A DNA stretch of 59,011 nt, the filler included, from Squatina squatina (Eukaryota), in NCBI GenBank assembly GCA_031763465.1. It is 4 parts of 4 records of this genome, joined end to end, with 100 filler letters (N's around TTAATTAATTAA, not from the genome) between each part and the next. Parts side by side here need not be neighbours in the genome. Positions count along the whole stretch, not along the records: positions 12,832 to 28,566 come from JARFOE010000219.1; 3 more parts are not named here. One strand, written 5' to 3'. Of the stretch, positions 8,101-44,471 are shown one piece after another. Each line of letters starts with the position of its first letter. Within the stretch, counting starts at the first letter, position 1. The translations under genes were made by a program, and so were the position numbers. Below the pieces are notes generated by a model. That model worked only from the letters and a program-made list of their open reading frames with translations, was not told the origin of the DNA and searched no databases.

Positions 8101-9278
8101 CATGAAGGGCAACATCCTGAAATGCCAAGCCAATTCTGTTTTTTTTTATGGTTGGTTAAGTTGATTTACTTTGTGCCTGTTCCAGTTCAGCACCTGCAGT
8201 TCAGGTCAGGTTGTGTGTCAGTATAACCATGGTGTAAGTCTAGGCCTAGCATCTTACTATTATTGGAGGAAAATAACTCTAACATTTCCATTAAAATTGT
8301 TGTGGCGAGATTGCTTTTTGACTGTGGAGTATGCTGAAAAGCCTTGCGTACAACACATATTTGGAATTTTAATTTAATAGAGCAACAGTTAATGAACATA
8401 GATTCATAATGAAAAGTTAACTTGCAAGCAACAACCAATATGTTATGCTTCATTAGTTTTTGCCCAACTGTTAAAATAATTGTAAGAGACAATGATAATT
8501 GCAACATGTATAATGTCTGGCTTAAAAACAAAGGGCCAGTTGCATTCATGCCCTGTCTCAAAGCACTTCACATGTAGTCAATTACTTTGAAGTGCAACGA
8601 CTGTTGATATTATAGACAAACACTGCAACTATTTTGTGTAAAGCAAGATTCCACAAGCAGCAAAAAGATAAATAATTTAATCTGNNNNNNNNNNNNNNNN
8701 NNNNNNNNNNNNNNNNNNNNNNNNNNNNNNNNNNNNNNNNNNNNNNNNNNNNNNNNNNNNNNNNNNNNNNNNNNNNNNNNNNNNGTACCGTACTGGTGTG
8801 TGCAGGTCTGCCATATTTTTTGGTTACAAATATTTTGTAACTTCAGTTTTTCACATTTTATGAAACATTTTGAATAGAGCCATACATATAAAGAAACTGT
8901 TAAAATATCAGAACAACACTGAGACGAGGATGTTTTGCATTCCATCGAATGCTCCCTTCTAATTCTTTATGATGTGTGACAGCATCTGATTTTTAAAAAT
9001 TCACCTTCCTTCCTACGGGCGAAGTGCTCGTCTCCGCTGATATCTCCCCTGACAACTTGGCCAAGGTTGAAAACGCCCTTCCCCCTGGCACCCAAGTAAA
9101 TGTTATGTTTTATCTACAGTTACAAGTACAAGACCAGCTGGCAACAGCCAGCTATTGTTTAATTGTTCATTGTCTCAGAATTCACAAAAGCTGCATGGTG
9201 AAATAAAGTGATCATTGTTAACAAACACAAGGTGAATTCTTGTGTCTAAATATGTTTGTTGGCTTCTGCTCAACACAG

Positions 9279-9438
9279 GTACCATTATCCAGCTCCTAAA
9301 TTATTTTATGTCCAGCTGCTTGTGGGGAATACAGAATTTATTGGAGAAGGACGGACCCGTCAAGCTGCTAGACACAATGCTGCTATGAAAGCCCTTCAAG
9401 CTCTTCGTGATGAGCCTATTCCAGAAAAGGCACCTCAG
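9279..9438 (+). CDS. STAU2: Staufen homolog 2, internal coding exon (C-terminal part of dsRBD2)
   Basis: caacacag acceptor and gtaaat donor. Encodes (R)YHYPAPKLFYVQLLVGNTEFIGEGRTRQAARHNAAMKALQALRDEPIPEKAPQ; joins in frame to 987-1122 (AG+G = Arg). Confidence 0.95.
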
Positions 9439-10921
9439 GTAAATATTTTTCACTCAGTCAGAACTGAATCTGTAGATTATCTGCATTAGTTTAATAAATT
9501 AGCCTCTCTTAACTCTCTCAAAGTGTTCAAGATTTGACTGTGTGTCCTCCAACAATATGTTTCTACCACAAAATGTTTCTTCCATTTTCTCACCTTTTGT
9601 ACTGAAGGTGTTGATTCTTACTGGGATAATTTCAATGAGTGTGGGCAGCTGTCTGGTACATCGCTGAAGCAGCCATTCTTCTTGAGTAGGCTTTTTATAG
9701 TTGAACCCAGTCCTGTTTTTGATAGAGATCACGAGCAGAAAACCTGGCAGACGTTTTCTTTCTGACGTTCAGGGGTGCTGAGACCATTGCTATGCTCCAA
9801 CTGTTGCCTTACATGAGATCAGCTAATTCAACGCAAAACTGATTTCTATAGCGTAGTTCTCAACCAGGCATTGCCTTTGCCCATTACACCATAAGACCAT
9901 AAGAAGTAGGAGCAGGAGTAGGCCATTCGGCCTGTCGNNNNNNNNNNNNNNNNNNNNNNNNNNNNNNNNNNNNNNNNNNNNNNNNNNNNNNNNNNNNNNN
10001 NNNNNNNNNNNNNNNNNNNNNNNNNNNNNNNNNNNNNCTCAAGAGGCCAGATTTAGAGGAGTGCAGATAACCATTGTGGTGAGTTTCTCTGCATGTCAGG
10101 CATTCAGCTGGCCAAGAGAAAAGAGTGGAGAGCGTGGACTGAAACATATGGTGCAGAAGATTTCTTAAATAGGGAAAGGGAAAGCTAGAAATAGGGTAGT
10201 AGATTATGACGCTTGAGGTGATGAGGATGTTATTATAAAGTGAAAGTGAATATATCTACATATTCAGGAAAGCATTGTGTCTGTAGCACATTAAATGATT
10301 TACATTGAACAAAATATTTTACACCCTTGTTGCGGGGAGTGGGTTTCTGTAAAATTATTTACAGAACTTGATCCTACCAGAAATATGTTGATGTGGGATA
10401 CATGATAGTGTTTCCACTGTATGTAAACAGACTGCATGAAACTGCTTTGGTTAAAGTTTAGAGAACGAGTAACAGAATTGGTTTTTCATCATGTGGACTT
10501 CCTGTTTATTCAGTAGGGTAAATGTTAAGAATATCAGTGTTTTAAATGTAAATGTTTATATAGTGAACATGTAAAGATTGTGCAGATGTTTTTTCAAAGT
10601 CTAAATCGGTACTGGAGTTTAATGCCAAACCTAACTGAAAAGTTACAAAATCTGGACTTCACCAGCAGATCTTAACAACAGGAAAAATTTCAATATTGCT
10701 ACCTTTTAGGCAACCTTAAAGGTGAAAACAATTAAATGGAAGGAGTTCCATTCAATCATCTGAAAATATGGTCACAAATTATATATGTTGCTCGTTATAT
10801 ATTCTGTTGCTGTTCTTAGCTNNNNNNNNNNNNNNNNNNNNNNNNNNNNNNNNNNNNNNNNNNNNNNNNNNNNNNNNNNNNNNNNNNNNNNNNNNNNNNN
10901 NNNNNNNNNNNNNNNNNNNNN

Positions 10922-12731: not shown

Positions 12732-12831
12732 NNNNNNNNNNNNNNNNNNNNNNNNNNNNNNNNNNNNNNNNNNNNTTAATTAATTAANNNNNNNNNNNNN
12801 NNNNNNNNNNNNNNNNNNNNNNNNNNNNNNN
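12732..12831. other. Artificial scaffold linker
   Basis: N-run / TTAATTAATTAA (stops in all six frames) / N-run, 100 nt total. Confidence 0.97.
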
Positions 12832-13456
12832 TTCTTTGGCCTTCTGTCAATTTTTGTCTGGTTATGCTCCTGTGAAGCGCCTTGGATGTACTACTATGTT
12901 AAAGGTGGTTCATAAATGCAGAGTAGGAACCCCCCATCCCTCCGGCCCTAAAAGGTTGAAACACGTCATAAAAAGCATCTCAAAGTAACTGGGGACACAT
13001 TTAGCAGCCAGCTAGAAAATATGCCCCAGTTCAAGTGTAAAATGCTTTATGCGTTGGTCAGGATGTAATTATATTGCATAATGGCGTAAGATAAATATAT
13101 TTCTTACTGTTCCATATCCTTAAGGCGCTATTTTGGGTGTGCTAATAAAATATATTTTAATATATGCTGTGCAAAAGTCACAACGATAAAAACTGGATCA
13201 AAACGGCAAATGTTTCAAGCCAGGGAGATGAAATGAGTTGAGAGATTTCAAGCTGCAGTCCATCTTTTCTGTTCCAAGCAAAATGGACAGATGTTAATAA
13301 GTGTACCTGAGGTTTGATCCTTTCTCTCTTTTCCTTCTCTTTCTCCACAGCGCTCTNNNNNNNNNNNNNNNNNNNNNNNNNNNNNNNNNNNNNNNNNNNN
13401 NNNNNNNNNNNNNNNNNNNNNNNNNNNNNNNNNNNNNNNNNNNNNNNNNNNNNNNN

Positions 13457-14068
13457 GCTATCCATTTACAAGAGATAGTGAAAAGCTTAGAGCAGCATGG
13501 TCAACAAACTTGTGAGTTTAATAACTCCGGCTCAGGTAGTGAAGTTAACTATACCATGGAAACGTTAAGAGCAGAATTACACCCCACCCAGAGTGCCTAT
13601 GTGGGAAAAGGAAAGTATTGTGTAACTATGGACCATAAGAATTATCAATATGGAAATAGATCATGCCCATTCCGTACAACACCTTTTGCTTCATCCCAGG
13701 TTGGCCACTAAGAATAGGAATGCAGGAGTTAGTCAACATAACTATGCTTGATGTATACGATAATGTGAGGAAGGATTTAGGATGTTTTGTAGACAGATTT
13801 GAATATGATATACCACCTTTGCCAGAGCATCTGACTAAACTCAGAAAGGCAATTGACAAGTCAAGAAAACACTATTACCAGATACAACAGAAAAATAACG
13901 AACTTATGGATAAAATTGATAGCATCAAAGTAACCTCTTGGTGGGATATTGGTTCCAATATCCCACCTACACCCATGGATTTGGATTATATTTCATACAC
14001 TGGTAATCGTTTGTTTTTGTTATTTGAGTCATGTCAGAGGTGCAAAAGGGAAAAGGTTAGAAAGATGA
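13457..14068 (+). pseudogene. Frameshifted C-terminal part of an envelope-like membrane glycoprotein of an LTR retroelement/ERV
   Basis: Three overlapping frames reconstruct: ...TCEFNNSGSGSEVNYTM...YVGKGKYCVTMDHKNYQYGNRSC / PIPYNTFCFIPGWP...LTKLRKAIDKSRKHYYQIQQKNNELMDKIDSIKVTSWWDIGSNI / HPWIWIIFHTLVIVCFCYLSHVRGAKGKRLER*. It has Cys residues, 4 N-glycosylation sequons, a heptad-like helix, a Trp-rich membrane-proximal segment, a hydrophobic TM and a basic tail. Lies directly upstream of a PPT and LTR. Confidence 0.7.
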
Positions 14069-14176
14069 AGAGAATGAGAAAATACGAGGTATCGCAAAAG
14101 TCATTGTAATTGAAATGTGTTTAACTGGTAATTGTGAGGAATCAATGCTGAAGCACTTCATCTTCCAAGTGGGGAC

Positions 14177-14889
14177 TGCAGGTATTTTTACTCCCTGTTT
14201 ATTCTGTATAAACATTTAAATGTGTGCAATGCTATTAACATAGTTGCAGTAGTGTTAGCACAGTGTTAGCTATTAAATTGCCACTGTAAATGCAAGGCAT
14301 AATGGGAAGCTTGGCCAAAAAATAGGCAGATCGTCGAAACTTTTGATTCACTGACCTTCGAATTAGGGCAATAACAATGATAACAGGAAGTATCTTTGTA
14401 ATAGAAGGCCAGGATATATGGTTGGAAAAGCGCAGAAATGCTGAAACAGGGACCTTGAAACTGTTGTAAGGTCTGATTAAAGTTCCTATATGTGAGCATT
14501 AATGTGCAGGACTGTGAGCTTACCATGCATGGATAAACATGGGACCCTGAACCAATCATGTTGGGCAAATCTGTCCATTTCCTAATATGGTAAGGCACTG
14601 GACCCCAGAGGGGGATAAAAGATTGTGGGTTTGAGACATCATTGGCACACCCAGAGAGAAGTGGGGAAGAGGGAGAGGAAGACAGACTAGAGTCAACAGA
14701 ATGCGACAAGAAAGCTTAAGAGAAAACAGTGTCCCCAGAGGGACTCGGAGCAAGAAACCGGTATCGGGTCTCCCCAGAACCTCCTTGTTGTTAAGTATTA
14801 GATCATATATTTTTGTAATACTTAATAAACTCCCGGTCTTATCAATCAGTTGTCCATATGTCGTGGGTCTTTTTGGTCAGGAGCCCACA
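14177..14889 (+). mobile_element. Putative 3' LTR
   Basis: Preceded by purine tract aagtgggga(c). Starts TG (14177), has TATA-like gataaaa near 14614 and AATAAA at 14824-14829, and ends ...gagcccaCA (14889). The 5' LTR is not in the window, so the boundaries are inferred. Confidence 0.65.
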
Positions 14890-15176
14890 TAAGATAAGAG
14901 TGAGAAACCAACAAGACTCAGACACTGCTCAATGCACCACACCCTCATTGCTCAGTTACCAACAATCTCTATCAATCACAACTCATGCCTCCCATTCACA
15001 GCTTCACCTCACCTTCACACACTTTGCACTGCTGCAAGCCTCACATCCACATCTCACAGTTTGCACACACTGCCAGCTACTGAACCATGAAAGGCACATC
15101 ACCCAAACAGATTACACCACACTCACTGATGCACTTCCCTCTCCCTTTTTGGAGCATAACTGGAGGCAGCAGGAGC
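14890..15176 (+). mobile_element. Possible remnant of a Harbinger element (Myb/SANT-like second ORF region)
   Basis: CA-rich intron-like tract followed by gagcataactggaggcagcaggagc (EHNWRQQE), resembling the HNxRQQxxTGGG segment of Harbinger accessory proteins; truncated by a gap. Confidence 0.3.
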
Positions 15177-15355
15177 NNNNNNNNNNNNNNNNNNNNNNNN
15201 NNNNNNNNNNNNNNNNNNNNNNNNNNNNNNNNNNNNNNNNNNNNNNNNNNNNNNNNNNNNNNNNNNNNNNNNNNNNGCACAATGGACTGAAAGGCATGAT
15301 TCTAGGATGTGTTTTTTTTTGTCCAGTGGTTTATTCTGTGTTCTTTCACTGGCAG

Positions 15356-15455
15356 AGCACAGTGGACAAGCTCATCAAGAAGACAAATCTTGCACTCGTG
15401 GTAGGGACACATTCCTGGCGGGATCAGTTTATGGAGGCCATCACAGTCAGTGCTG
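15356..15455 (+). CDS. SLC8A3: Sodium/calcium exchanger 3, 100-bp coding exon
   Basis: ggcag acceptor and gtaag donor. Encodes STVDKLIKKTNLALVVGTHSWRDQFMEAITVSA; GTHSWRDQFME fits NCX3 better than recalled NCX1 or NCX2. Confidence 0.9.
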
Positions 15456-15967
15456 GTAAGAAATACTACCTTAAGTGCGTCTGATTTGTAGAGTGTATTT
15501 AACATGGAACATAACCTTCCTTTGATCGAGAAACAAGACTGAAAACTGTTACAAAGCACAACCTAGACACATGCAGCAACTGCTTGGCCATGACCTACAA
15601 GGACATCATTCATTTTTCTTTGCCAAGGTTTACAAAGTTTCTCACATTTTTGAATGGATTTTGACATTGGAGATTCTTGTTGCTAGGATGCAATATTTGG
15701 CCACCTAAATTTGCACGGTGGTGACTAAATAATAATTCATGCTGGAATACAAAAAAGCTCTTTAGAGAAGCCCTAACTTGTGAGCAGCCCAGTTCTGCAG
15801 ATATCCAATCCTGTGCAGTGTCAACTGATCAATATTTTTTAAGCAATTTATTTGAATAAGTTTGGCTNNNNNNNNNNNNNNNNNNNNNNNNNNNNNNNNN
15901 NNNNNNNNNNNNNNNNNNNNNNNNNNNNNNNNNNNNNNNNNNNNNNNNNNNNNNNNNNNNNNNNNNN

Positions 15968-16215
15968 AGAGGAACGGCTGCCCTCATGTTTTGACTATGT
16001 GATGCATTTTCTGACTGTCTTCTGGAAGGTTCTGTTTGCCTGTGTGCCTCCCACTGAATACTGGAATGGATGGGCCTGCTTCGTTACGTCCATTCTCATC
16101 ATTGGCATCCTGACAGCCATCATTGGTGACCTGGCCTCTCACTTTGGCTGCACAATTGGCCTGAAGGATTCAGTCACAGCTGTGGTATTTGTAGCTCTTG
16201 GCACCTCAGTACCAG
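15968..16215 (+). CDS. SLC8A3: Sodium/calcium exchanger 3, penultimate coding exon (5' end in gap; TM region and alpha-2 repeat)
   Basis: EERLPSCFDYVMHFLTVFWKVLFACVPPTEYWNGWACFVTSILIIGILTAIIGDLASHFGCTIGLKDSVTAVVFVALGTSVP, then donor gtaaat. Confidence 0.92.
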
Positions 16216-17492
16216 GTAAATAAACATGAGGACAAAAAAATATCTAACTTCTGTGCACTTCCTGTTTATATGATTTTTTTTTATTTTCATTTTTTGTAAA
16301 TTGCTCAAGGATCTTCATTTTATCTTAAAGAGCTTCAGCTCAGATGAAAGAAAAGCATTTATATGTTGCCTAATTACATATCTCAGAAATGGCTCAAAAC
16401 GCTTCAGATACAATGAATTACTTTTGAAGTGCAGTGATGCTTGTTACACAGGCAAAGGCAGCAGCCATATTGTAATCAACAAGATCCCACGAACGGCTCC
16501 AGGTGAATAGCCGGTTAATGGGGCTGATTTTCCTCTGCTTTCCACTTGGGTCAATTCCCAGGCTCAAAGCAGAGGAAAGAGCAGCAGAGTGTGGTTGCCT
16601 GAAGAACAGACATCATGGGCCTGGATTTTGCAGTGGTAATGATGGCTAAACTGTCAGCGTTCACCATCATTACCCCTCTGAAACTGACTGCAACTACTGC
16701 AGTCAATGCATGTGCAGATAAACATGGAAATCCAGCAGTAGGTGCAGGCCAGTCAGGGACATACAAGTGAGGCAGGTAGGTAGTTTCCAGTCTCCCGCCT
16801 GATTACCAGGATCACTCGTTTGCTGGGCACCCCAGGCCAAGGGCGCCCAGAAAATGTGGCACAATGGCCAGGCCCTGGCTCCCCGCTGACCGGAGGGTCC
16901 AGGGAGATCCCAGGNNNNNNNNNNNNNNNNNNNNNNNNNNNNNNNNNNNNNNNNNNNNNNNNNNNNNNNNNNNNNNNNNNNNNNNNNNNNNNNNNNNNNN
17001 NNNNNNNNNNNNNNAAAGATTATATGAGGTCAATCCGCAGCTCAGTAGAGAAATGTCTTGATTCCAGTCACATTGCGTTTTACAAATATATTTCCCTTTG
17101 GATATCATTGTTAACACTGCATATATGTTCTCATTGAGCAGACATTGCGATTGACAGTGTGTTTTTTCCACGGAGTTTTCAATACAAGAGAAAGGTTGGT
17201 TGTTAAGGTGAAGCGTGCACAACAGGAGTTGTAAAAAAGATCTGGACCAAAGTCTGGGAGGTAGGTTCCAACGTCATCTTCTTGTTCACCCAGACACCTC
17301 GGTGCTAAGTTCTTGATGGTCACTCAGTTGTCTTACCTGGCCATCACATTGTACCTCTCACTTAAGACATAATGCCATAGCGATTTTCACCTGGTACTAG
17401 GCCTGTGCTTTAAAGGCTGTCACAGAAAGTCTACAAAAAACAGATATGAAAAACTGGAAAAGGATCAGAGAAGTTACAATTCAGAGACATAA

Positions 17493-17738
17493 TTAGACTC
17501 TGGTGTGTCTGCAGGTCCTGGTGGTTCCTGAAGCGGTCCCAGAGGCTGAGGTGGAAGGTGACTCATCATCTCCTGTGTCGCTCTGATCGTCCTTATTTAG
17601 GCCCTGGCTGCTGATGTGGCTCTGGAGAGCTGCAGGCGTGAGCCATTCCTTGGGAAGGCAACTCTGGAGGAATGGAATGCAGGAACTGAAGTAAGCCAGC
17701 CGGTTCACCCAGCGAGGGATCTCCTTACCGCACAGTAT
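17493..17738 (-). CDS. DESI2: DESI2-like (PPPDE peptidase/deubiquitinase), last coding exon
   Basis: ttccag acceptor; [40 protein letters not shown]...RTCRHTRV*, with TAA at 17493-17495. Orthologue versus paralogue is unresolved. Confidence 0.9.
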
Positions 17739-17888
17739 CTGGAACACAACAAGCTCAGCTTCAGACAGTAAACCATCTTTCAATCATCNNNNNNNNNNNN
17801 NNNNNNNNNNNNNNNNNNNNNNNNNNNNNNNNNNNNNNNNNNNNNNNNNNNNNNNNNNNNNNNNNNNNNNNNNNNNNNNNNNNNNNNN

Positions 17889-18133
17889 GGTAAAAGAACC
17901 AGCAGGGACATGAGACTTTTTTTAATGCAGCGAGTTGGTATGATCTGGAATGCACTATCTGAATGGGTGGTTTAAGCAAATTCAATAGTATCTTTCAAAT
18001 ATGAATTGGATAAATAATTGAAAAGGAAAGATTTGGGCAAGAGCAGCGACAGTGAGACTAGTTGGGTAGCTCTTTCAGAGTTGGCACAGGCACGATTGGC
18101 CAAATGGCCGCCTTCTTTGCTGTATGATTCTAT
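17889..18133 (+). mobile_element. CR1 LINE 3' end
   Basis: Decayed ORF2 C-terminus (cagcgagttggtatgatctggaatgcact, the 'RVVxxWNxL' region) and tail ggccaaatggccgccttctttgctgtatgattctat. Confidence 0.75.
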
Positions 18134-18967
18134 AAGTGTGAGGCAGGCATGAACAGAGAAGGAGAAGAATGTTGGAGAGATTGACTGACACAGCCAAGGT
18201 ACCAGAACTGGAAGTAGAGAGTCAGCTGGAAAGGGAAGAGAGCCGGAGATAGTTTAGCATCAGTAAGTGAGAAAAGGGGATACATTTGTAAAGAATAGAT
18301 GGTGTTATAGTCACAAAATAACAAGAGAGTTGGGGGCAAAATGGAAAGTGGCTCAGCGAGAGAGGCTGAGAAATGGAGGGGGGAGCTCTATGTGAGTCAT
18401 GTGTTATTTCCTGAGTCTGTTAGTCAGTGCGTGTTGCCCGGACTCTGCTCAGATAAACGTGTTTTTTATGTGAACCCAGGCTCTGGATGTGAAAAGGATA
18501 ATGTGGTAACATGATCAACTGTGCTATCCAGCCACCATAAATGCTCCCTTCTAGTTTCATTTGTCTGTTGTTGTTTTATGTATCGGCCTTATCAATGAAT
18601 GTTAATAAAACTATTTGACAATAGTCAAGTCCTTTCTTCCCCTTGCCCAGTATCGTACAGGCAAACTTCTGGTCGGGGTTGTTAGGCAGAGATCAGGGCT
18701 GTAACTCTGAACAGTATATATTCCCAACCAGGGATGCTGCTAACTATTGTGGTACTTGAGCTATTGCCTTAGGATAGATTAGCCAGAGATTGAATCTAGG
18801 ACATTCCTGGTTTGTATAACTTAGTTCAAGCGTATTTACCTGCAAGAGCCATCAGGGCATTATTTTTCTATTAATAAATTAATATATATTCATTGCTGCA
18901 GGCGCTGGTTCATATTTTATTACATAGCAGTGCTAGAGTGTATTAACTGAGCCCCATGTTATCGTAC

Positions 18968-19109
18968 CTCTGCCAGGCCTGCAGAGAAGTGGTTACAGTT
19001 CTTGTGCATGAGATGATAGGCATTGCCCTTGAACTCCTTCCCAAGCTCTTCAATAATTTTGTCGACATCTTCCTCTGTGAAGTCCGTGGTACCAAGGGCG
19101 ATGGCCTCT
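18968..19109 (-). CDS. DESI2: DESI2-like, 142-bp exon with catalytic Cys (NCNHF)
   Basis: tttttattcag acceptor and gtacga donor. Encodes [47 protein letters not shown]; joins in phase 0 to the exon starting at 17738. Confidence 0.92.
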
Positions 19110-21232
19110 CTGAATAAAAACAACAGTTTTGTTTTCAGGAATATATTTTGTAAGCGCAGCGACGCAGGTCTCCTGTGGCAGTGCTCAGGATGAGTCAGAG
19201 GATGTGCTATACATGACAATAAGGATGTCCAATCATGTATTATCAGAGGTCATTGATTAACACTGATTGAATAACTTCATTTGAATATTTATTACATGGA
19301 ATTCTGAGATTTTTAATTGTGGTTTAGGGTGGATTTTCATGATTCTTTGCCGGTTTCTGTGAGAACTCTAAATCAGCAGCCTTAATTATTACTGCTCGGT
19401 CCTTTACCAGTATACCCAATCTTTATCTATTATCTTTTATAAAGTTCAGGATACACAGAAAAATAGCAAGCAAGATATACTCGTTTTGTGATAGATGGCT
19501 GGGCTCAAAATTCTGATTAGCCCCCTGCAGAGGTGTAGCCCAGAATAGGCCCAGACCCCCAATTATGGTGACGGGGTCATTTACATATTCGAAGCAACAC
19601 ATTGTCAGTCCCAGGGAAGACAGATGGCCCCATAAAAAGGTAAATTTTCACCATCTTCAGCCCCAAATGCAGCCAGCAGGGGATTGGTAGTTGGAAGAGT
19701 TCTGGGGCCTTTTGGGGCCTCAGCAGGACTGACGCCAGCTCTAAGATGGCTTGAGCATCATTTCGGCCTTTAAAGGGCAGATTTCCTGGGGTAAGCCTGG
19801 GAACTGTCCCAAGTACAGTCCTCTGATGTTGTGGGGCGGTGGGTGGACTGGGCAGATGATGCATCAATAGATTCCCACTAAAATGCCTCACTGGGAAATA
19901 TGGGACAGAATCTGGGGGAACCAGATCTGGCAGGATGGCAGAGGAACCTAAATTCTGGATACATTGGACTGGGATACTAGGTTCTGGTGGCACTGGATAC
20001 AGGTCAGTCCAGCTCTGAAAGCACTGAGGTGGTGGGTGGGGGGGGGAATGGCTTGTAGCTTCTGTGATGTGCAACTATCAGTTAAAACCTTACTTGATGT
20101 GTACTGTCTTGTACATTAAGCTTTAATTTGGAATAGTAGTAGAGAACCTTTTCATTGAAAGAATCGAGCAGTCCAATTGATTTTTATTATTTGAAGGTCA
20201 CCATGAGCTGCCACCGGTAGCACACACCACAATCCTGAGGGCGTTCCCAGAGCCACTGAAGAGGAACGATGAGGCTGTCATCACCACGAAGACTAACTCC
20301 AGGACTCTCGATGAAGTATATTGCAAGCGATTCACTTTATTTTTATACAGTGATTTTTACCCATCCCCATTTTTTGCCTGTCATGCTGTTTGCTATCTCC
20401 GTATAAAGATGGTGAGGGGCACCAACCCAGTCGCAAGGAAAGCACTGGAACGATTCTGCGTGGTTTTCCCTCCCTCCCTGCAGTGACACAGCTACTGCTA
20501 GGGCTATATCAGCACAAGATTGAATCCATGTCCTCTTGCCTTGCAACACGTTTCTGCCCGATGCACATCATTAGGCACAAATCTGTATCTCAAGTTCCCA
20601 TTCACATTNNNNNNNNNNNNNNNNNNNNNNNNNNNNNNNNNNNNNNNNNNNNNNNNNNNNNNNNNNNNNNNNNNNNNNNNNNNNNNNNNNNNNNNNNNNN
20701 NNNNNNNNCAGCCAATTGGATTTTATTTTCAATCAATCAAATGGGTGCTTTTTAAGCACTTACCATATCGTAAACATTGAGAATGACTGGTTCATTTGCC
20801 ATCGCTCGTTGCAGAGATCATACAATTCCAATAATCCTTAAATCAGTGGTTGGTCCCAGTTCGCTCTCACTGGCCCACGCTACTGTTGCATCCAAGATCA
20901 AACATACGGAACAATTTTTTTTACACAGGGATCGGAAATCTCTCCAGTCTCCAAAAATACACGGCGAGGATTGGATTCCCGCTACTTCGTGCAGCGTGAT
21001 CGAGAGAGTGCGGTGACAGTTCATCCATAGGTAGTGCCCCTCTCTACAAATCCAGCCTGCACGCTACAAAAACCATATTTATGCATTTAGACAATCAAAC
21101 AAACAGACAAAAAAAAGGCATCAGTTAGAAATCATTGCATCGGACGCCTGTGCCCCACTGGAGATTGCTTCATGTTCACTGGTCTTCCTTGTTTGAGCAG
21201 AGGCTGGAGATGGAACCTGGACGTTTCTCGGC

Positions 21233-21235
<3 letters not shown>

Positions 21236-21265
<30 letters not shown>
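21236..21265. repeat. (TG)n microsatellite
   Basis: About 15 perfect TG units. Confidence 0.95.
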
Positions 21266-21267
<2 letters not shown>

Positions 21268-21511
21268 GAGCTCAGTCCTGTAACTACTGCCCTTCGAAAG
21301 CATCGAGGGACGGGATGAACACCTCAAAACAGGGTCGGGCAGCGAGGGGGGCAGAGCGCACAGCAATTAATCTCAATGCTCGTGCAGGGGACGTGCTGGT
21401 GACGCACGGAANNNNNNNNNNNNNNNNNNNNNNNNNNNNNNNNNNNNNNNNNNNNNNNNNNNNNNNNNNNNNNNNNNNNNNNNNNNNNNNNNNNNNNNNN
21501 NNNNNNNNNNN

Positions 21512-21685
21512 CCCCAATTTGGTGTCATCCGCAAATTTAGAAATTGTGTTTTTGATTCCAAAGTCTAAATCATTAATATAAATTGTGAACAACAGTGGTC
21601 CCAGCACTGGTTCTTGTGGAACACCACTACCCACCTTCTGCCACTCTGAATAGCTACCCTTTACCCCCACTCTCTGCTTTCTATC
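21512..21685 (-). mobile_element. CR1 LINE reverse transcriptase fragment
   Basis: [44 protein letters not shown]. Confidence 0.92.
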
Positions 21686-22969
21686 TAATAGTTCAGTTAC
21701 TTATTTGGAGGGATTTTCCTTTCTCTGCTTTGCAGAGAAAAAAAGAAGAAACTCGTTAATTCTCCTCCCCCTTTGAGTTGCATGGCACTTAGAGCAGGTG
21801 AAGAATTTAAGTGTCGTGGAAATTAAGTGGGAGTAATGACACCACACATCCCACCCCATTTTTCTTATAATGAAGAGGCTTATAATGTTGCCAAAAAGAG
21901 CAGGAAGACTGAGGATTGTTTTTACACTAGTTCGTTCCTGCCATTATAAAGGCTCTAAGATACAGCATTGGGACCCCTCTTACACTGATTTAATTAATCC
22001 ATTGTTCTGTAAATTAAATGGAGGTTCTGGAACTAATTAATGCAACTACGTGTTTCATTTCATGCCATCTTTCATCCAAACTTGTCCCCTGGGTCTTTTA
22101 AAAAAACGTCTCTATTCCTTTAAAAAGTGAAACCATTTGGTTTCCCCACACATCTCTTCCTCCTAAAAGCCAGCCTTTGGTCGCAATGTGCGCCATTCCG
22201 CCCCCTTCATTTCATTGAACCCAAGATTAACTGCATTGTCCTGGTTCATGGCTTCAAGCGGCCTGGACGTTTGAATGCCTCGCCAAACTTATTCATAAGT
22301 GAGGTTTCCAGTTTTAACTTTATGATCTAGAAATTTGCAACTGAATCTTCCTAAGACATTTCTGGAAGATAGCAACCCCACATGGAAGCGTGTGTACCGC
22401 ACTAATACAGAACACGCGATCAAAACAAAAACATTTGAAGACAATAACCTCCTCCCTTCCACTTGTACCAAGCCACGTATATTCCACCCCCACCCCGCCG
22501 AGCCTCGTGGAAGGATTTCATTTGACGTAATTACGTAACGATCAGTGCGTGGATCAGAAGGGCATGTTCATGGAAGTTTTACAATCTTCACAAAAAAAAA
22601 GCAAATCGCCCAGAAAGACACATCAGGTGGTCGCACAGAAGAGAGCCAGAACTGGAAATGGGTTTAACTCATTCCATTTCGTAGAACATGCAGAAACAAA
22701 ACCCGCACTGTCAACACAATTAGACTGGGGAAATAAGAGTAACTTAGTCGACCACAGCTCCGGAAATGACCAGATTTAAAAGTGTGTTGTCCCGTGTCCA
22801 GGTTCCTGAGGCAAAACTATTAATGGGCGGCAGGAGATGAATTACCTTCTCTTGCTCCAAAATCTGTTAGCTCCTTCCTTATATTTTGTCAGGGTAAACC
22901 TCGGGCGTGTCTTTACTAAACTAACTCTGCTCTGTGAAGTGGGTTTCTGTAGAAATCTATCGATATATG

Positions 22970-23400
22970 TTTGTTCTTCCTGAAGCGCCCGATTGATGTG
23001 TCAGCAGCGCCTGGTGCAGTCAGCACGCCGGCGCTGTCCAGGGTGCTGATGCAGCGAAGCTCCCGCTCGCCTGGCTGGAGGAGGATGACATCACTTGGAG
23101 CGAGCCCGAGCAGCGGCTCCCCGGCCAGGCTTTTAAAGCAGCCACTGCAAATTGAGGTGGAGATTGCTGCGATCTGGTTACATCATAAACGTCCACATCT
23201 CCAAAAGGGTCCGGGCACGCTTAAAGCTGGACCGCAATCGGAAGGAGCGGCGCTTGTTTAAATCGTCGTCCAGAACGGTTCGAGTGCATTGGGCGCCTTT
23301 GAAATCCACCAGGTTTAAAACGTTACTTTTTGACCCAATATCAATCTCGTGCCCACAATTGAGCGAACACCGTTAAGTAGCAGCGTCCTTGGTTTCGTTT
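22970..23400. promoter_or_regulatory. CpG-rich unique region, candidate promoter/first exon
   Basis: High CpG density relative to the flanks, without the MITE terminal motif; no transcript evidence. Confidence 0.3.
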
Positions 23401-26400
23401 GAAGCTTCAAGTCAGTGGGGGAACTCTGATTTAGAGGTGTTCACTCTGAAATAAGGACTTGTCACTCAATCCACCTGGCAGCATTGTAAAGGGGCCGGAT
23501 CATGTTAAAAATGTAATAGTCACCAGTTGCCAACAGTGCCGCCAGCGTGACTTGGAACCTATGCTGACAGCGTGCTGCATTGACGATTTCCGAGACACGA
23601 CTACAGAAAGATCATTTTTATAAGCCGCTGCTCCAAGTTTGTACGAGCGCCAGCACAAAGCATTGGCACGGTTCTGCTTTAAATCCAGGCAGTTGGAATT
23701 AGTAACCGATAGCATTTCAGCAATCCANNNNNNNNNNNNNNNNNNNNNNNNNNNNNNNNNNNNNNNNNNNNNNNNNNNNNNNNNNNNNNNNNNNNNNNNN
23801 NNNNNNNNNNNNNNNNNNNNNNNNNNNAAGTAATTTTATGAATAGCATTACAGTAAGAGTTCTATTTCAGGTATCTCCTGTACACAATTATACATAAATA
23901 ACATTTTTATCTGGATATATTTGTTTTGCAGCAGTCAGAATTGTTACAAAGCACCCATTTTTGTTCCAATGCCTAGACTGCATTGGTAGTGATACAGATC
24001 CGACCTTCACAGCATGCTCATTAACATTATTGTAGTCAAAGACGATATTTTTAAACCATTATGCAATTTTCAAAGTTAATTAGCAGCACTTCAGGCCTAC
24101 ACACTTACTATATATAAAATCAAACTTTATGACCAAAATGACCATTTTGATTATAAATCTAGGCAACACATCGACAAAAAGGATGTGATTTCATTAACAC
24201 ATTGATTGCACACATCAATTAAAAGAATCAGTTCTGGCAGTTTTATTTTCATCTTAATAGAAAATAGTGAAACTATATTGAAATGGATATTAAAACCTCA
24301 TTAAAAAGAAACTCCTTCACTGTGAAAGGCAGCATTTGGCATCATTCCCACAGTAGGCACTGGCATCAGGAAAAGAACAAAACAGTTTCAGCACAGTTGG
24401 TGGACATGGATATAGCAAAGGCAGCATATAACAAAAGACTACATTTCCGAGATGAAGTTATCAAATGATCTGTTACACCAAATAAAAGGAGATTTATATA
24501 CCAATGTATAGCCCATATTGTTGAAAGTTATAGTAGTGAAACAAAAGTTGTCATATATGTGACTACTGTTAACCNNNNNNNNNNGACAGATCATTTCTGT
24601 TTTGCAAATATTTTACATAAAGTGTCATTATTGATTTGAAATATTTTTAACCACATCAGCTATAGGTTTTCTTGCAAGATTTTAGTTTAAAAACACAAAA
24701 TTATACATCACTTATTTTTTTCCCCCATTTACAGTGTCTGAGACCTAAAAACCATCATCCTTGCAAGTCATTAGACGCCAAGCAGTTTACAGTTTACAAA
24801 ACAAGATACAGGCTACAGATAAAATACTAGAATCTAAGAAAATAAAGTGTATCCAGAAGCAAACAATAAAGATAGTACCANNNNNNNNNNNNNNNNNNNN
24901 NNNNNNNNNNNNNNNNNNNNNNNNNNNNNNNNNNNNNNNNNNNNNNNNNNNNNNNNNNNNNNNNNNNNNNNNNNNNNNNNCTCATCTGTGGTGTAGATCA
25001 ATATTTCTGGAAGAACTCCAGTTGATAAACAAAATGAGACATTGGTGAGTTATCAAACATCTGCTTGGGTTTCATTATGAAAATGAATTCACTTGTTTGC
25101 TCAACCTACTTCTGACTGCAGTGGTTGAGTAATTCAGCTATTGCTCCATTAAGATAAAAACTGGTGCTAGAGCTCAGTACATAACGAGAATTATGTACTT
25201 GTTTTCTTTCAATAAAATTTGATTCTTCTAAATTTAATATACAGCTAATAGCAACTAATGTATACATTTACCTAGCAAAAACAAAAAAAATCTTCTATAC
25301 ACCAAAGCAAGGCTTGGGCACTAGTCGCTGGGTTCCCACAGTGTGGGAGAACTGGTTACTATCTTGTACACTCTAGGATACTAGTTTATCACTGAACCAA
25401 ACTATAAAGGAAGCAATCGTCCACTTAAAAGATTGCAAGCGTTTTTAATGTTTCAGCTACTCGTTTGATTTTCTGGGGAGCAGCAAGGATGAGTAAACAA
25501 GAANNNNNNNNNNNNNNNNNNNNNNNNNNNNNNNNNNNNNNNNNNNNNNNNNNNNNNNNNNNNNNNNNNNNNNNNNNNNNNNNNNNNNNNNNNNNNNNNN
25601 NNNTGAGCAGAGCTGATGGTGAATAACCAGCCCAGTCATATGCCAGATCCAATCATTTGCTCAAGTCTGCGGGTCTCAGATTTAAGAATGAGGAGGCAGG
25701 AATTGTATCACTGCAAATGGTACCAGTGAGGACTGAGGGGTTCAGATGGGATGAGTGTTGAACTTAGAAGTAAGGGAGTTAAACAGATCAGGAGCAGCAG
25801 CAATGTCTGGAGGGCCAGGGACAGAAAGTTGGAAACATGAGGGGGTTTTCATTGGGGAGCTGAGGGGGTAATTTATTTTTTGAGTGGATATGGTGATAGA
25901 GGGATTGCAGGTGGGCAGATTGATGTGAATGTTGAGGAAAATAAAGCAGGGTCATGCTAACAGGATAGAATGGGACCCCACATTTAGAACGACATTTAAT
26001 TTCACCTTTTCTGGAGAATGACACAATCATAATAGAAACTGGGGATACTTGCCTGTGAGTCATGATGTCTAATGAAGGACTACTGAGAGAGATAGAAATA
26101 GATCAACAGCACTTTCTCAATTGGATATCTAATCCTTAAATATTATAAATTTATTTTTGGCAAGTTTGGGGATTGCCTGACATTTGTTATTGATTTGCTC
26201 GATAAAGTTAATGGCTGAGGTTTGATCTGTTTGATAGATATGGGCATATCCTTCTTGGCTGGATGTCAGGGAGAGAAGCAGAGTTTATGGAAACACTCAC
26301 TGAAGAGGAACTAGCATCAAACATCACCAGGATTCTAAGGCAATTCACTGGTAAGAATTCTTAGAGTAAGTCCACTGATTCTGTGCTCCCAGTAGGAAGC

Positions 26401-26519
26401 TGTGCATGAAGATAATGCAGGTCAAAAATAACATTACAACACTGTAGCATTGATTTTCCCTCGATGTTCCCTTTGACCACATCTCCCTACCAGGAGCATT
26501 GAATCGATGAATTTCAGTA

Positions 26520-27586
26520 ATATAGGATGCATACATTGTATAATCACACATGCGGCCATCCTCCTGATCTCAATATCAAACATGGTCTTGTGACTGCCAA
26601 GGTCTCTATCACTGACAACGCTCCTTTCAACCATTTCCTTATCGCCCTTACATGCCCTGTCTCCTCCCAATCTTCCCACCCTGGACAAAATTACCCTCAA
26701 CTGCCTCTCAAGCACCCTCTCAAACTCTGACTTCCCTCTGCCAGCCATGACACCAATGACACCTCAGTTGATCTGCTCCACAATTATCTCATGTCTACTG
26801 TTAATACTCTTGTGCCCCCTCAAAAACCTCCACAACCTCTGCTCCTTGGGAATAAACTTACACGGTGATAACTGACCGGGCAGTCCACGACGAGATCAGA
26901 TGAACCACCTCAAGTTTTACCATCACTCCCCTTCCATTGCCAAGTCTTTTTACTAGTCCAGTAGAGTCCTGGAGAGCAGAACCAACCCCAAACTCCTCTT
27001 CTCACCTCATTCCTTCACACTGCCCTCATTTCAATCACAGAATACGAGCAAATCAACCTTTTTCAAGTCTACAATCGAGGCCATTCGCACAGTTGCTCTT
27101 TTCTCTCATCCTAAATTCTAGCCCTATATTCCCACCTTCTAGTAGAGCCCTCATCTGTTTCACACTCATCGGCTTCTTCCCTATCTCCTGCTCTCGCTAC
27201 TTTCATTTTGTCCATAAAGCCCGCCACCTACTTCTGTGATTCCCTTCCCTTCCCATCCCAGCTCCTGATCACCTTCATCTCCTCAGTCACATGCTCACCA
27301 ACATTATCAACTTGTGTCTAATTGGCACTATCCCTATCTTCTGCAAAACTGCCATTATCATCCCTCCTTTAAAAAAAAATTAAAAAAAAATCTTATGCCC
27401 ACCTTACTCTCTAACTATCACCCTATCTCCAACATTTCCTTCCTTAAATTACTGGAATATGTTGTTACCTTTTATTATTCTCCCATCTTTCCCACCACGT
27501 CCTGTTAGAAAGCCTCCAAACCAGCTTCCACCAATCCCACAGTCCCCCAACCTAGTTACCGTCTCAACCTTTCCATTTTTCCCTCC
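26520..27586 (+). mobile_element. Decayed L2 LINE ORF2 (endonuclease end to RT start)
   Basis: HTCGHPPDL...VSITDNAPFNHFLI (APE end, SDH-like) and SNYHPISNISFLKLLEYVV (NYRPISNLPFLSK-like); C/T-rich + strand. Confidence 0.75.
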
Positions 27587-28029
27587 NNNNNNNNNNNNNN
27601 NNNNNNNNNNNNNNNNNNNNNNNNNNNNNNNNNNNNNNNNNNNNNNNNNNNNNNNNNNNNNNNNNNNNNNNNNNNNNNNNNNNNNNCATTCAATCTAAGT
27701 TTTAACCCTTTTGTGCTGTAACTCTTAAACTGATATAGTTTTGCGTCTCTTACTGACTCCTCTTCACAAGAGCCAAAGCAGGATAGTCGACAGAAAATAA
27801 CGTCGGAAGCAACGAGAACAGCTGTTAATTTGGAAGTGGAAGAGGACTGAAGAACTGAAAGGGTTAAGCTCTCCCGAGAAACTGTACTCGTGTCATATTT
27901 GGAGTATAAAAACAAAGCACAAAGATATTCGCTTCTGTATAAAATTAAACACAAAAGTTCAGCGGCCCACAAGAACTGAGCCAGAGAGTTGGAGACTCAA
28001 CCCCAACGTGACAGACATTCATCACCTCT

Positions 28030-28160
28030 TCACTGGAGTCTCATCCGTTTCTCAGGAGGAGCCTTGGTGCTTGAACTCTGCTGCGAGTTCTTTGTAGAGT
28101 CTTTCTCCTCCTGTTTGATGGTTTCCGTTGTTGGTTCGGATTCTTTTTTTACCTGCTCCA
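28030..28160 (-). CDS. MED6: Mediator subunit 6, last coding exon
   Basis: gcttttcag acceptor; (V)[42 protein letters not shown], matching the recalled MED6 C-terminus PPEKRMRLQ. Absent from the supplied ORF track. Confidence 0.93.
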
Positions 28161-28256
28161 CTGAAAAGCAAAAATATGCACATAAAAAAGGTCACGTTCG
28201 GTATATTTGTCTAGAAGCCCACCCTATTAGCTTGATTCACAAAAAAAAAACCTCAC

Positions 28257-28284
28257 CTGGCACAGGTTTGTCTCCAGATTTGGG
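28257..28284 (-). CDS. MED6: Mediator subunit 6, 28-bp penultimate exon
   Basis: ttttcag / CCC AAA TCT GGA GAC AAA CCT GTG CCA G / gtgagg = PKSGDKPVP(V); 96-bp intron, phase-compatible with the last exon. Confidence 0.9.
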
Positions 28285-28566
28285 CTGAAAATGAAAACCA
28301 AGAGTCAATATAAAGAACAGTTGGGACATTCGTAGCACAAGATCAGAGAAAATAAAATGTCTTACATTTCACTGTTCAGCAGTTACATTAATGTGCTGAA
28401 CATTACATTAACTCCTGTTCACTGTAATGAGCCCAGTGTTTCAAATGAGAGAGGCAACTCTCAATTGTACTTGGCTTCTCCAGAGGGTGAGATCAGCCAG
28501 TTTCCAGAGTCACTTGGTGGTTAAAGAGGATGTAGACGCTAACTAAGGTAACATTCTGTTCATTTC

Positions 28567-28666
28567 NNNNNNNNNNNNNNNNNNNNNNNNNNNNNNNNNN
28601 NNNNNNNNNNTTAATTAATTAANNNNNNNNNNNNNNNNNNNNNNNNNNNNNNNNNNNNNNNNNNNN
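28567..28666. other. Artificial scaffold linker
   Basis: N-run / TTAATTAATTAA / N-run. Confidence 0.97.
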
Positions 28667-38041: not shown

Positions 38042-38372
38042 ATCTAGGTCGCTAATAAATATGGTGAGTAGTTGAGGCCCCAACACAGATCCCTGTCCAT
38101 TATCCCTACTCTCTGTCTCCTGCCGCTCATCCAATTTCTTAACCAGGTCAAATATTTTCCCTCAATTCCATGAGCTTCAACTTTAGCTAACAGTCTCTTT
38201 TGAGGGACTTTATCGAAGGCCATCTGGAAGTCCATGTAAATTACATCCATGGACATTCTTCTGTCCACTACTTTGGTCACCTCTTCAAAAAAATCTCATC
38301 AAGCTCGTCAGGCATGACCTACCCTTTACAAATCCATGCTGGCTCTCTCTGATCAGCTGAAAATTTTCAAGA
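38042..38372 (-). mobile_element. CR1 LINE reverse transcriptase fragment
   Basis: MDVIYMDFQMAFDKVPQKRLLAKVEAHGIEG...WMSGRRQRV and QGSVLGPQLLTIFISDLD. Confidence 0.92.
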
Positions 38373-44371: not shown

Positions 44372-44471
44372 NNNNNNNNNNNNNNNNNNNNNNNNNNNNN
44401 NNNNNNNNNNNNNNNTTAATTAATTAANNNNNNNNNNNNNNNNNNNNNNNNNNNNNNNNNNNNNNNNNNNN
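44372..44471. other. Artificial scaffold linker
   Basis: N-run / TTAATTAATTAA / N-run. Confidence 0.97.

Follow-up and report, generated by a model that had tools for sequence, protein, structure and literature searches.

A decayed 3' end of a probable endogenous retrovirus with a predicted F-type envelope gene in Squatina squatina

Introduction

Envelope proteins of retroviruses arose at least twice independently: one origin gave the gamma/beta type, another the F type found in foamy viruses and in lokiretroviruses. A locus of Squatina squatina, in which a damaged envelope-like reading frame is followed by an LTR-like stretch, raises the question of which type of envelope was encoded there and what kind of element carried it. 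We analyzed this locus in a window of 59,011 nt, the whole stretch of DNA under study, to which all coordinates refer; the element part falls within 12,832-28,566 (JARFOE010000219.1). We consider it likely, with good confidence, that the locus is the decayed 3' end of an endogenous retrovirus, with an env gene of predicted F type and, 67 nt on, a probable LTR.

Results

Reading frames and damage of the envelope remnant

The window is gappy (47 pieces with a median length of 967 nt, separated by 46 runs of N), and the element occupies most of the piece 13457-15176, with an N gap on either side. The 5' side of env is cut by the assembly gap at 13457, and the 5' part of the element falls in N. 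The env remnant and the stretch downstream of it are contiguous, while their placement depends on scaffolding. Four separate frame pieces across 13457-14109 match, in order, one uncharacterized protein family, the members of which are given here as P numbers. The features of the locus are as follows.

13457..13504, + strand: HRA-like stub, first heptad region of env (8/15 identical to P0009 57-71, 0/2000 shuffles; also matches four other relatives)
13511..13665, + strand: Cys-rich env part, likely beta-sheet (23/45 identical to P0001 48-92; alignment)
13669..13962, + strand: remainder of domain II, linker, second heptad and Trp-rich membrane-proximal motif, in a new frame (46/93 identical to P0001 99-196)
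13940..13967, + strand: 12-bp hairpin over the second frame change (DNA fold and self-blastn)
13967..14011, + strand: transmembrane segment, first half, in a different frame (9/15 identical to P0001 207-221, 0/2000 shuffles)
14011..14109, + strand: anchor end, CxxC, basic cytoplasmic tail and stop (7/19 identical to P0001 229-247, 0/2000 shuffles)
14167..14175, + strand: short candidate polypurine tract, AAGTGGGGA (8/9 purines)
14177..14889, + strand: probable 3' LTR of about 713 nt (promoter/poly(A) layout; both boundaries unproven)

By analogy with F proteins, 13511-13665 would correspond to the end of domain I plus domain II, and the second heptad (HRB-like) lies at about 13822-13929. The reading frame changes three times, near 13665, near 13965 and near 14011, the last at the start of the 14011-14109 piece. 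A preliminary description of this DNA had placed frameshifts near 13665 and 13965. Both are confirmed, because every piece read singly matches P0001 in order (23/45 identical residues for 13511-13651, 46/93 for 13669-13947 and 9/15 for 13967-14011, each with 0/500 shuffles as good). The second frame change lies under the hairpin (DNA fold -12.2 kcal/mol, z -3.04, 2/200 shuffles), and template switching there could have caused it.

The same description expected a continuous segment of about 200 aa after correction of two frameshifts. This did not hold, given the third frame change and about 165 codons missing in-frame near 13505. The opening 16 codons correspond to the first heptad region in 5/5 relatives having it (0, 5, 0, 0 and 16/2000 shuffles), compared to 107, 816 and 289/2000 shuffles for three control relatives lacking that region. 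Thereafter the match resumes only at P0009 residue 240, which gives the in-frame loss of about 165 codons. A mis-join at the contig end may be an alternative source of this gap.

The basic tail had also been read in the wrong frame. We rejected that frame, which scored above shuffles against 0/6 relatives, in favor of the frame of 13660, in which a tail with CxxC and basic residues scored above shuffles against 4/6 (0, 8, 16 and 19/2000), the exceptions being P0009 and P0007. Since the true tail frame is that of 13660, the env stop lies at 14107-14109, 67 nt from the TG at 14177 and not about 100 nt as previously estimated.

Other elements of the earlier reading were recovered: the four sequons (NNS 13520, NYT 13547, NRS 13655 and NIT 13735), the cysteines, SWWD and hydrophobic stretch, and the long heptad-like helix, in which 8/10 a/d positions are hydrophobic in the best register. 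In the alignment, one cysteine conserved family-wide is replaced at 13550, and the membrane anchor is shorter than in the relatives. We conclude that this env copy is dead, and that no working envelope can be made from it because of the loss of about 165 codons, the three frame changes, the lost cysteine and the shortened anchor.

Relatives in sharks and skates

A phmmer search with the 102-residue middle piece against 1.84 billion representatives returned eight proteins at E <= 0.001, seven of which belong to one family (phmmer E 2.9e-19 for the middle piece). The eighth, the repeat-rich protein P0008, we set aside as a spurious match. Follow-up searches brought the total to 16 relatives, seven of them named and nine unnamed assembly products. 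The chondrichthyan affinity suggested in the preliminary description was borne out, as all seven named relatives come from four shark or skate species (Heptranchias perlo, Pristiophorus japonicus, Rhinoraja longicauda and Heterodontus francisci); bony-fish proteins were absent from the named matches of the family searches. The nearest relative is P0001, with a best identity of 49% over 98 columns. Several diverged relatives occur per species, for example four in Pristiophorus. In a tree of 13 rows including the window piece (4/16 relatives omitted as near-duplicates or for short overlap), two well-supported sub-branches were resolved, and the window piece and P0001 fall outside both.

Some of the relatives are irregular gene models. 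P0003 (Pristiophorus) fuses the env family to a cadherin-related gene and P0007 (Heterodontus) to fbxo15, which probably reflects annotation read-through or exonised proviral pieces, and the skate gene model P0004 is internally truncated. Such host fusions and truncation are what dispersed repeats would be expected to show. P0004 breaks off (residues 381-393) in the same heptad region in which the window copy begins its deletion; in the family alignment, its sequence picks up again some 95 residues after the point at which the window copy does. The two breaks may reflect a shared hot spot for splicing or deletion, or the one in P0004 may be an artefact of the gene model.

A word-index search with the family alignment yielded no pol-env fusion, its sole longer match being the cadherin-fused gene model, and the same type of search yielded no longer proteins matching the window piece. 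No loci were returned from viral contigs searched with the family alignment or P0009, nor from metagenome contigs searched with the family alignment; with P0001, three stretches of viral contigs passed and no locus was listed. The env pieces matched no host-gene family, and a host gene reading was rejected.

Predicted envelope type

Neither CX6CC nor an ISD-like motif, both of which the preliminary description had found missing, is present in the three frames of the window or in the 16 relatives. A gamma-type Env, which would carry CX6CC and the immunosuppressive domain, was therefore rejected. In the longer relatives we found instead a furin site and, following it in this order, heptads, a block of four cysteines, a second heptad, a Trp-rich motif and a membrane anchor. 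Two heptad regions thus flank a long Cys-rich core with the anchor after it, which is the F-type layout. The furin-type site (R-x-x-R or R-x-R-R) is present in 3/3 relatives reaching that region, and the fusion-peptide-like stretch following it is short and rather polar at its start (3/3). Anchor hydropathy was 2.1-2.8 over 19 residues in 6/6 relatives tested.

An ordered motif set generalized from the published Loki Env, built post hoc and not Loki-specific among F-type proteins, was matched in full by P0009 and P0013 and by 0/100000 shuffles of each, which points to a relationship with the F proteins of Mononegavirales. The four-Cys block of this pattern occurs in 8/16 relatives, and most of the others are short or damaged there. 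The ESM Atlas neighbors of P0009 were a Baculo_F cluster (0.94, 14/30 matches) and a Fusion_gly cluster (0.93, 8/30), which is weak evidence because the recognition score of 1641 lies below the 2300 mark. An Atlas match of the window piece to Hemingway/CFA97 was rejected as a short coiled-coil look-alike.

No above-cut-off Pfam match to viral fusogen families was obtained for the window pieces or the relatives; a Baculo_F match on P0007 was weak (E 0.0011, below cut-off). Sequence searches of the PDB gave nothing relevant. AlphaFold2 models were of low confidence, with a mean pLDDT of 37.8 for P0009 and 35.9 for its Cys-rich part, and structure searches with the low-confidence model of the latter (Foldseek against PDB and viral structures, and a wider search) came back blank.

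Judged from sequence, the envelope is very probably F-type (paramyxovirus/pneumovirus F, class Ib), because the Loki motif order and the baculovirus-F and paramyxovirus-F language-model neighbors agree. The non-gamma, F-related envelope suggested earlier is backed by the same motif order and the same Baculo_F and Fusion_gly neighbors. Additionally, P0004 is extended at its N terminus by about 230 residues, with an Ig-type Cys-Trp-DxGxYxC spacing at 96-159 (21/100000 shuffles); this stretch matched no Pfam families.

Polypurine tract and LTR signals

The candidate polypurine tract was located where it had been described, with TG following at 14177, but the tract is weak on its own: the window holds 50 polypurine-like sites on both strands, and the chance of one within 150 nt of a stop is about 0.07. 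The signals further downstream were likewise found, with CCAAT at 14552, a TATA-like box at 14614, a purine-rich stretch, AATAAA at 14824, a GT-rich stretch and the terminal CA at 14888-14889. No other CCAAT/TATA-like/AATAAA/GT-rich layout exists on the two strands of the window, and such a layout arose in 2/2000 dinucleotide shuffles, the pattern being post hoc. It is these window-unique promoter and poly(A) signals after the env stop that back the env-then-LTR layout of the preliminary description. The composition shifts after about 14900.

The terminal inverted match is poor (4/10 from 14177, compared to 7/10 from 14170), and the LTR may start anywhere in 14168-14177. No second copy of the candidate LTR was found within the window, and neither a target-site duplication nor a PBS was seen. 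A CCAAT-TATA motif scan of metagenome contigs (42/64 parts) gave 119 loci, of which 0/119 resembled the element or any of its relatives. On its signals and position, 14177-14889 is predicted with high confidence to be an LTR. Directly 3' of the proposed LTR end, TAAGA occurs twice (14890-14899), which could be chance or a flank duplication.

Discussion

How the element would have worked

The ancestor of this locus would have worked like other F-bearing retroelements. Its Env precursor would have been cut by furin, the site for which is present in the relatives. From the mechanics of F proteins we infer that the freed fusion peptide and the first heptad would have inserted into the target membrane, and that the anchor-side second heptad would then have folded back on the first, so that the membranes fused. 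Attachment may have been via an N-terminal immunoglobulin-like module, at which the motif in one relative (P0004) hints. The LTR, the motifs of which are seen, would have supplied promoter and poly(A) signal. A germ-line insertion would have been followed by decay, in the course of which about 165 codons were lost in frame, the frame changed three times, a conserved cysteine disappeared and the anchor became shorter.

Affinities of the element

Since pol is absent from the fragment, the lineage is not assignable from it, as the preliminary description had rightly held. Our single best guess, offered tentatively, is an ordinary fish-type retroviral backbone (snakehead- or epsilon-like), hence orthoretroviral, with an F-type Env; in excerpts of PMC4422223, elephant-shark ERVs group with snakehead retrovirus and epsilonretroviruses. 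The probability left over by this guess and by the Loki, gypsy and foamy-like readings weighed below falls to other lineages or to something that is not an LTR element.

The element could be a true lokiretrovirus (lokiortervirus, as renamed in PMC9040795), and would then be the first of its kind in cartilaginous fish. Loki Env has been published as an F-related Env of vertebrate retroviruses (PMC7947760), and the likeness extends over the furin site, the motif order with a spacing that is close by eye, the four-Cys block, and the placement of env, in a vertebrate LTR retroelement, immediately ahead of the 3' LTR. Further, a GPxxG-hydrophobic motif stands 83 residues ahead of the furin site in P0004, and Loki Env has one near its start. 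We nevertheless regard this reading as unlikely. When compared by eye with 23 published Env entries, some partial, the shark and skate family was not of the published Loki type: it has three extra cysteines in the ectodomain, a long second heptad and a Trp-rich membrane-proximal motif that Loki Env lacks, as well as a CxxC tail, about 230 extra N-terminal residues in P0004, and a polar start of the fusion peptide where that of Loki Env is hydrophobic. Bony fish were not represented among the named family matches, and in the excerpted source lokiretroviruses were reported from 0/6 chondrichthyan genomes. The earlier lean toward a lokiretrovirus is not established by these comparisons. An env-bearing Ty3/gypsy element (errantivirus-like) carrying an F-type env in a vertebrate is improbable, even though the top Atlas cluster of P0009 is arthropod Baculo_F, the only Pfam fusogen hint among the relatives is Baculo_F (P0007), and F-type env is widespread among invertebrate gypsy elements (bioRxiv 2023.10.26.564294). 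These Atlas and Pfam matches are weak and reflect general F-type features, and the excerpts of the same preprint report no intact homologs of the invertebrate elements from vertebrates. With paramyxovirus/pneumovirus F (PF00523) and baculovirus/errantivirus F (PF12259), the nearest Atlas feature clusters, the family shares the predicted order of cleavage site, heptad, Cys-rich core, heptad and anchor; it differs from them in lacking an above-cut-off HMM match or a fold match, and in that the gene here precedes a probable LTR.

Foamy viruses would offer another retroviral source of an F-type Env, as foamy Env has an F core and is structurally linked to F (PMC11468914). Elephant shark has foamy-like RTs, with env undetected there in the excerpted text (PMC5512871), and chondrichthyan ERV RTs are mostly clade III (PMC11089739). 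A foamy-like endogenous retrovirus is quite improbable all the same: foamy genomes carry accessory genes downstream of env (PMC5512871), and here there are none between env and LTR because the spacing is only 67 nt. Nor is a large receptor-binding insertion before the furin site evident in P0004, an internally truncated gene model; passages of newt foamy-like Env are unlike the shark and skate family by eye, and searches of the PDB with the family gave no sequence match. It is also conceivable, if very improbable, that the locus is not an LTR element at all but a captured negative-strand RNA virus F gene, or a decayed host gene next to an unrelated promoter-like stretch. Neither a paired LTR nor pol is seen at the locus, the purine tract is weak, and paramyxovirus-like insertions in sharks are mentioned in the excerpted literature. 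The occurrence of several diverged relatives within a single species (four in Pristiophorus), however, is in keeping with a multi-copy element. The promoter/poly(A) layout begins right after the env stop, and no host-gene family matches the env pieces. An endogenous retrovirus remains the preferred reading.

Among described chondrichthyan ERVs, the elephant-shark CmiERVs (PMC4422223) and the catshark ERV-Spuma.0-Sca (PMC10699275) likewise have env next to the 3' LTR, in the catshark element 37 nt before an LTR of 869 nt. Going by the excerpted descriptions, their Env is not described as F-like, which sets them apart. The published sequence of ERV-Spuma.0-Sca, available as garbled text, bore no likeness to the shark and skate family by eye.

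Place in the origin of retroviral envelopes

The locus represents, in decayed and divergent form, a group that has been little described. We found no description of an F-type Env in chondrichthyan ERVs in the literature searched, and the family, likely F-type, is itself absent from that literature. It may tentatively be seen as part of an undescribed, old and diverse radiation of chondrichthyan retroviruses with an F-type Env, a full second heptad and an Ig-like attachment head, which would stand as a third line of retroviruses bearing F, alongside the foamy viruses and the lokiretroviruses, with this locus as a deeply diverged sub-branch. If this is true and the polymerases are orthoretroviral, then the F-type Env would be either ancestral to retroviruses or swapped between lineages at sea. 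A shark and skate F-type family (at least four species, three sub-branches) adds the missing vertebrate class to the question of Env origin, which becomes testable by comparing RT and Env trees. The locus is a poor specimen in itself, with neither pol nor 5' half and with an internal deletion; what it adds is breadth, and its value lies in the evidence of the age and diversity of the family.

Assembly setting and neighboring genes

The pieces neighboring the element carry exons of a sodium/calcium exchanger (Pfam Na_Ca_ex, 15969-16220, +). We take this gene to be SLC8A3-like; another of its exons presumably lies near 15358-15457, and one probably begins at 13351 (+). If the piece order is right, the element sits within an intron of the exchanger, in the same sense as the gene. 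A motif search of the window did not find the last exon of the exchanger. Either this exon falls within a gap or the scaffold may have been compressed. A PPPDE/DeSI peptidase, presumably DESI2-like, has exons (Pfam Peptidase_C97, 17496-17783 and 18962-19110, -) that end only about 1.3 kb past the second-last exon of the exchanger.

Identical artificial linkers, each of 44 N, a 12-nt all-frame stop word and 44 N, occupy 12732-12831, 28567-28666 and 44372-44471. Gene order across them is untrustworthy, because they probably join unrelated scaffolds.

Rfam and tRNA scans gave no matches, and Pfam detected no gag, integrase or LTR-type pol in 126 other stop-free stretches of the window of at least 70 aa. 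The sole RT match among these stretches was RVT_1 at 38047-38295 (-, E 2.5e-5), far from the element; a second reverse transcriptase fragment lies at 21513-21700 (-). Both are presumably CR1/LINE-like and unrelated to the env element. Further, a double-stranded RNA binding motif exon (Pfam dsrm, 9250-9486, +, E 1.6e-6), which we take to be Staufen-like, was recognized with no further exons, and a decayed DDE_Tnp_4 transposase, presumably Harbinger-like, lies at 1243-2217 (+, Pfam E 9.4e-16).
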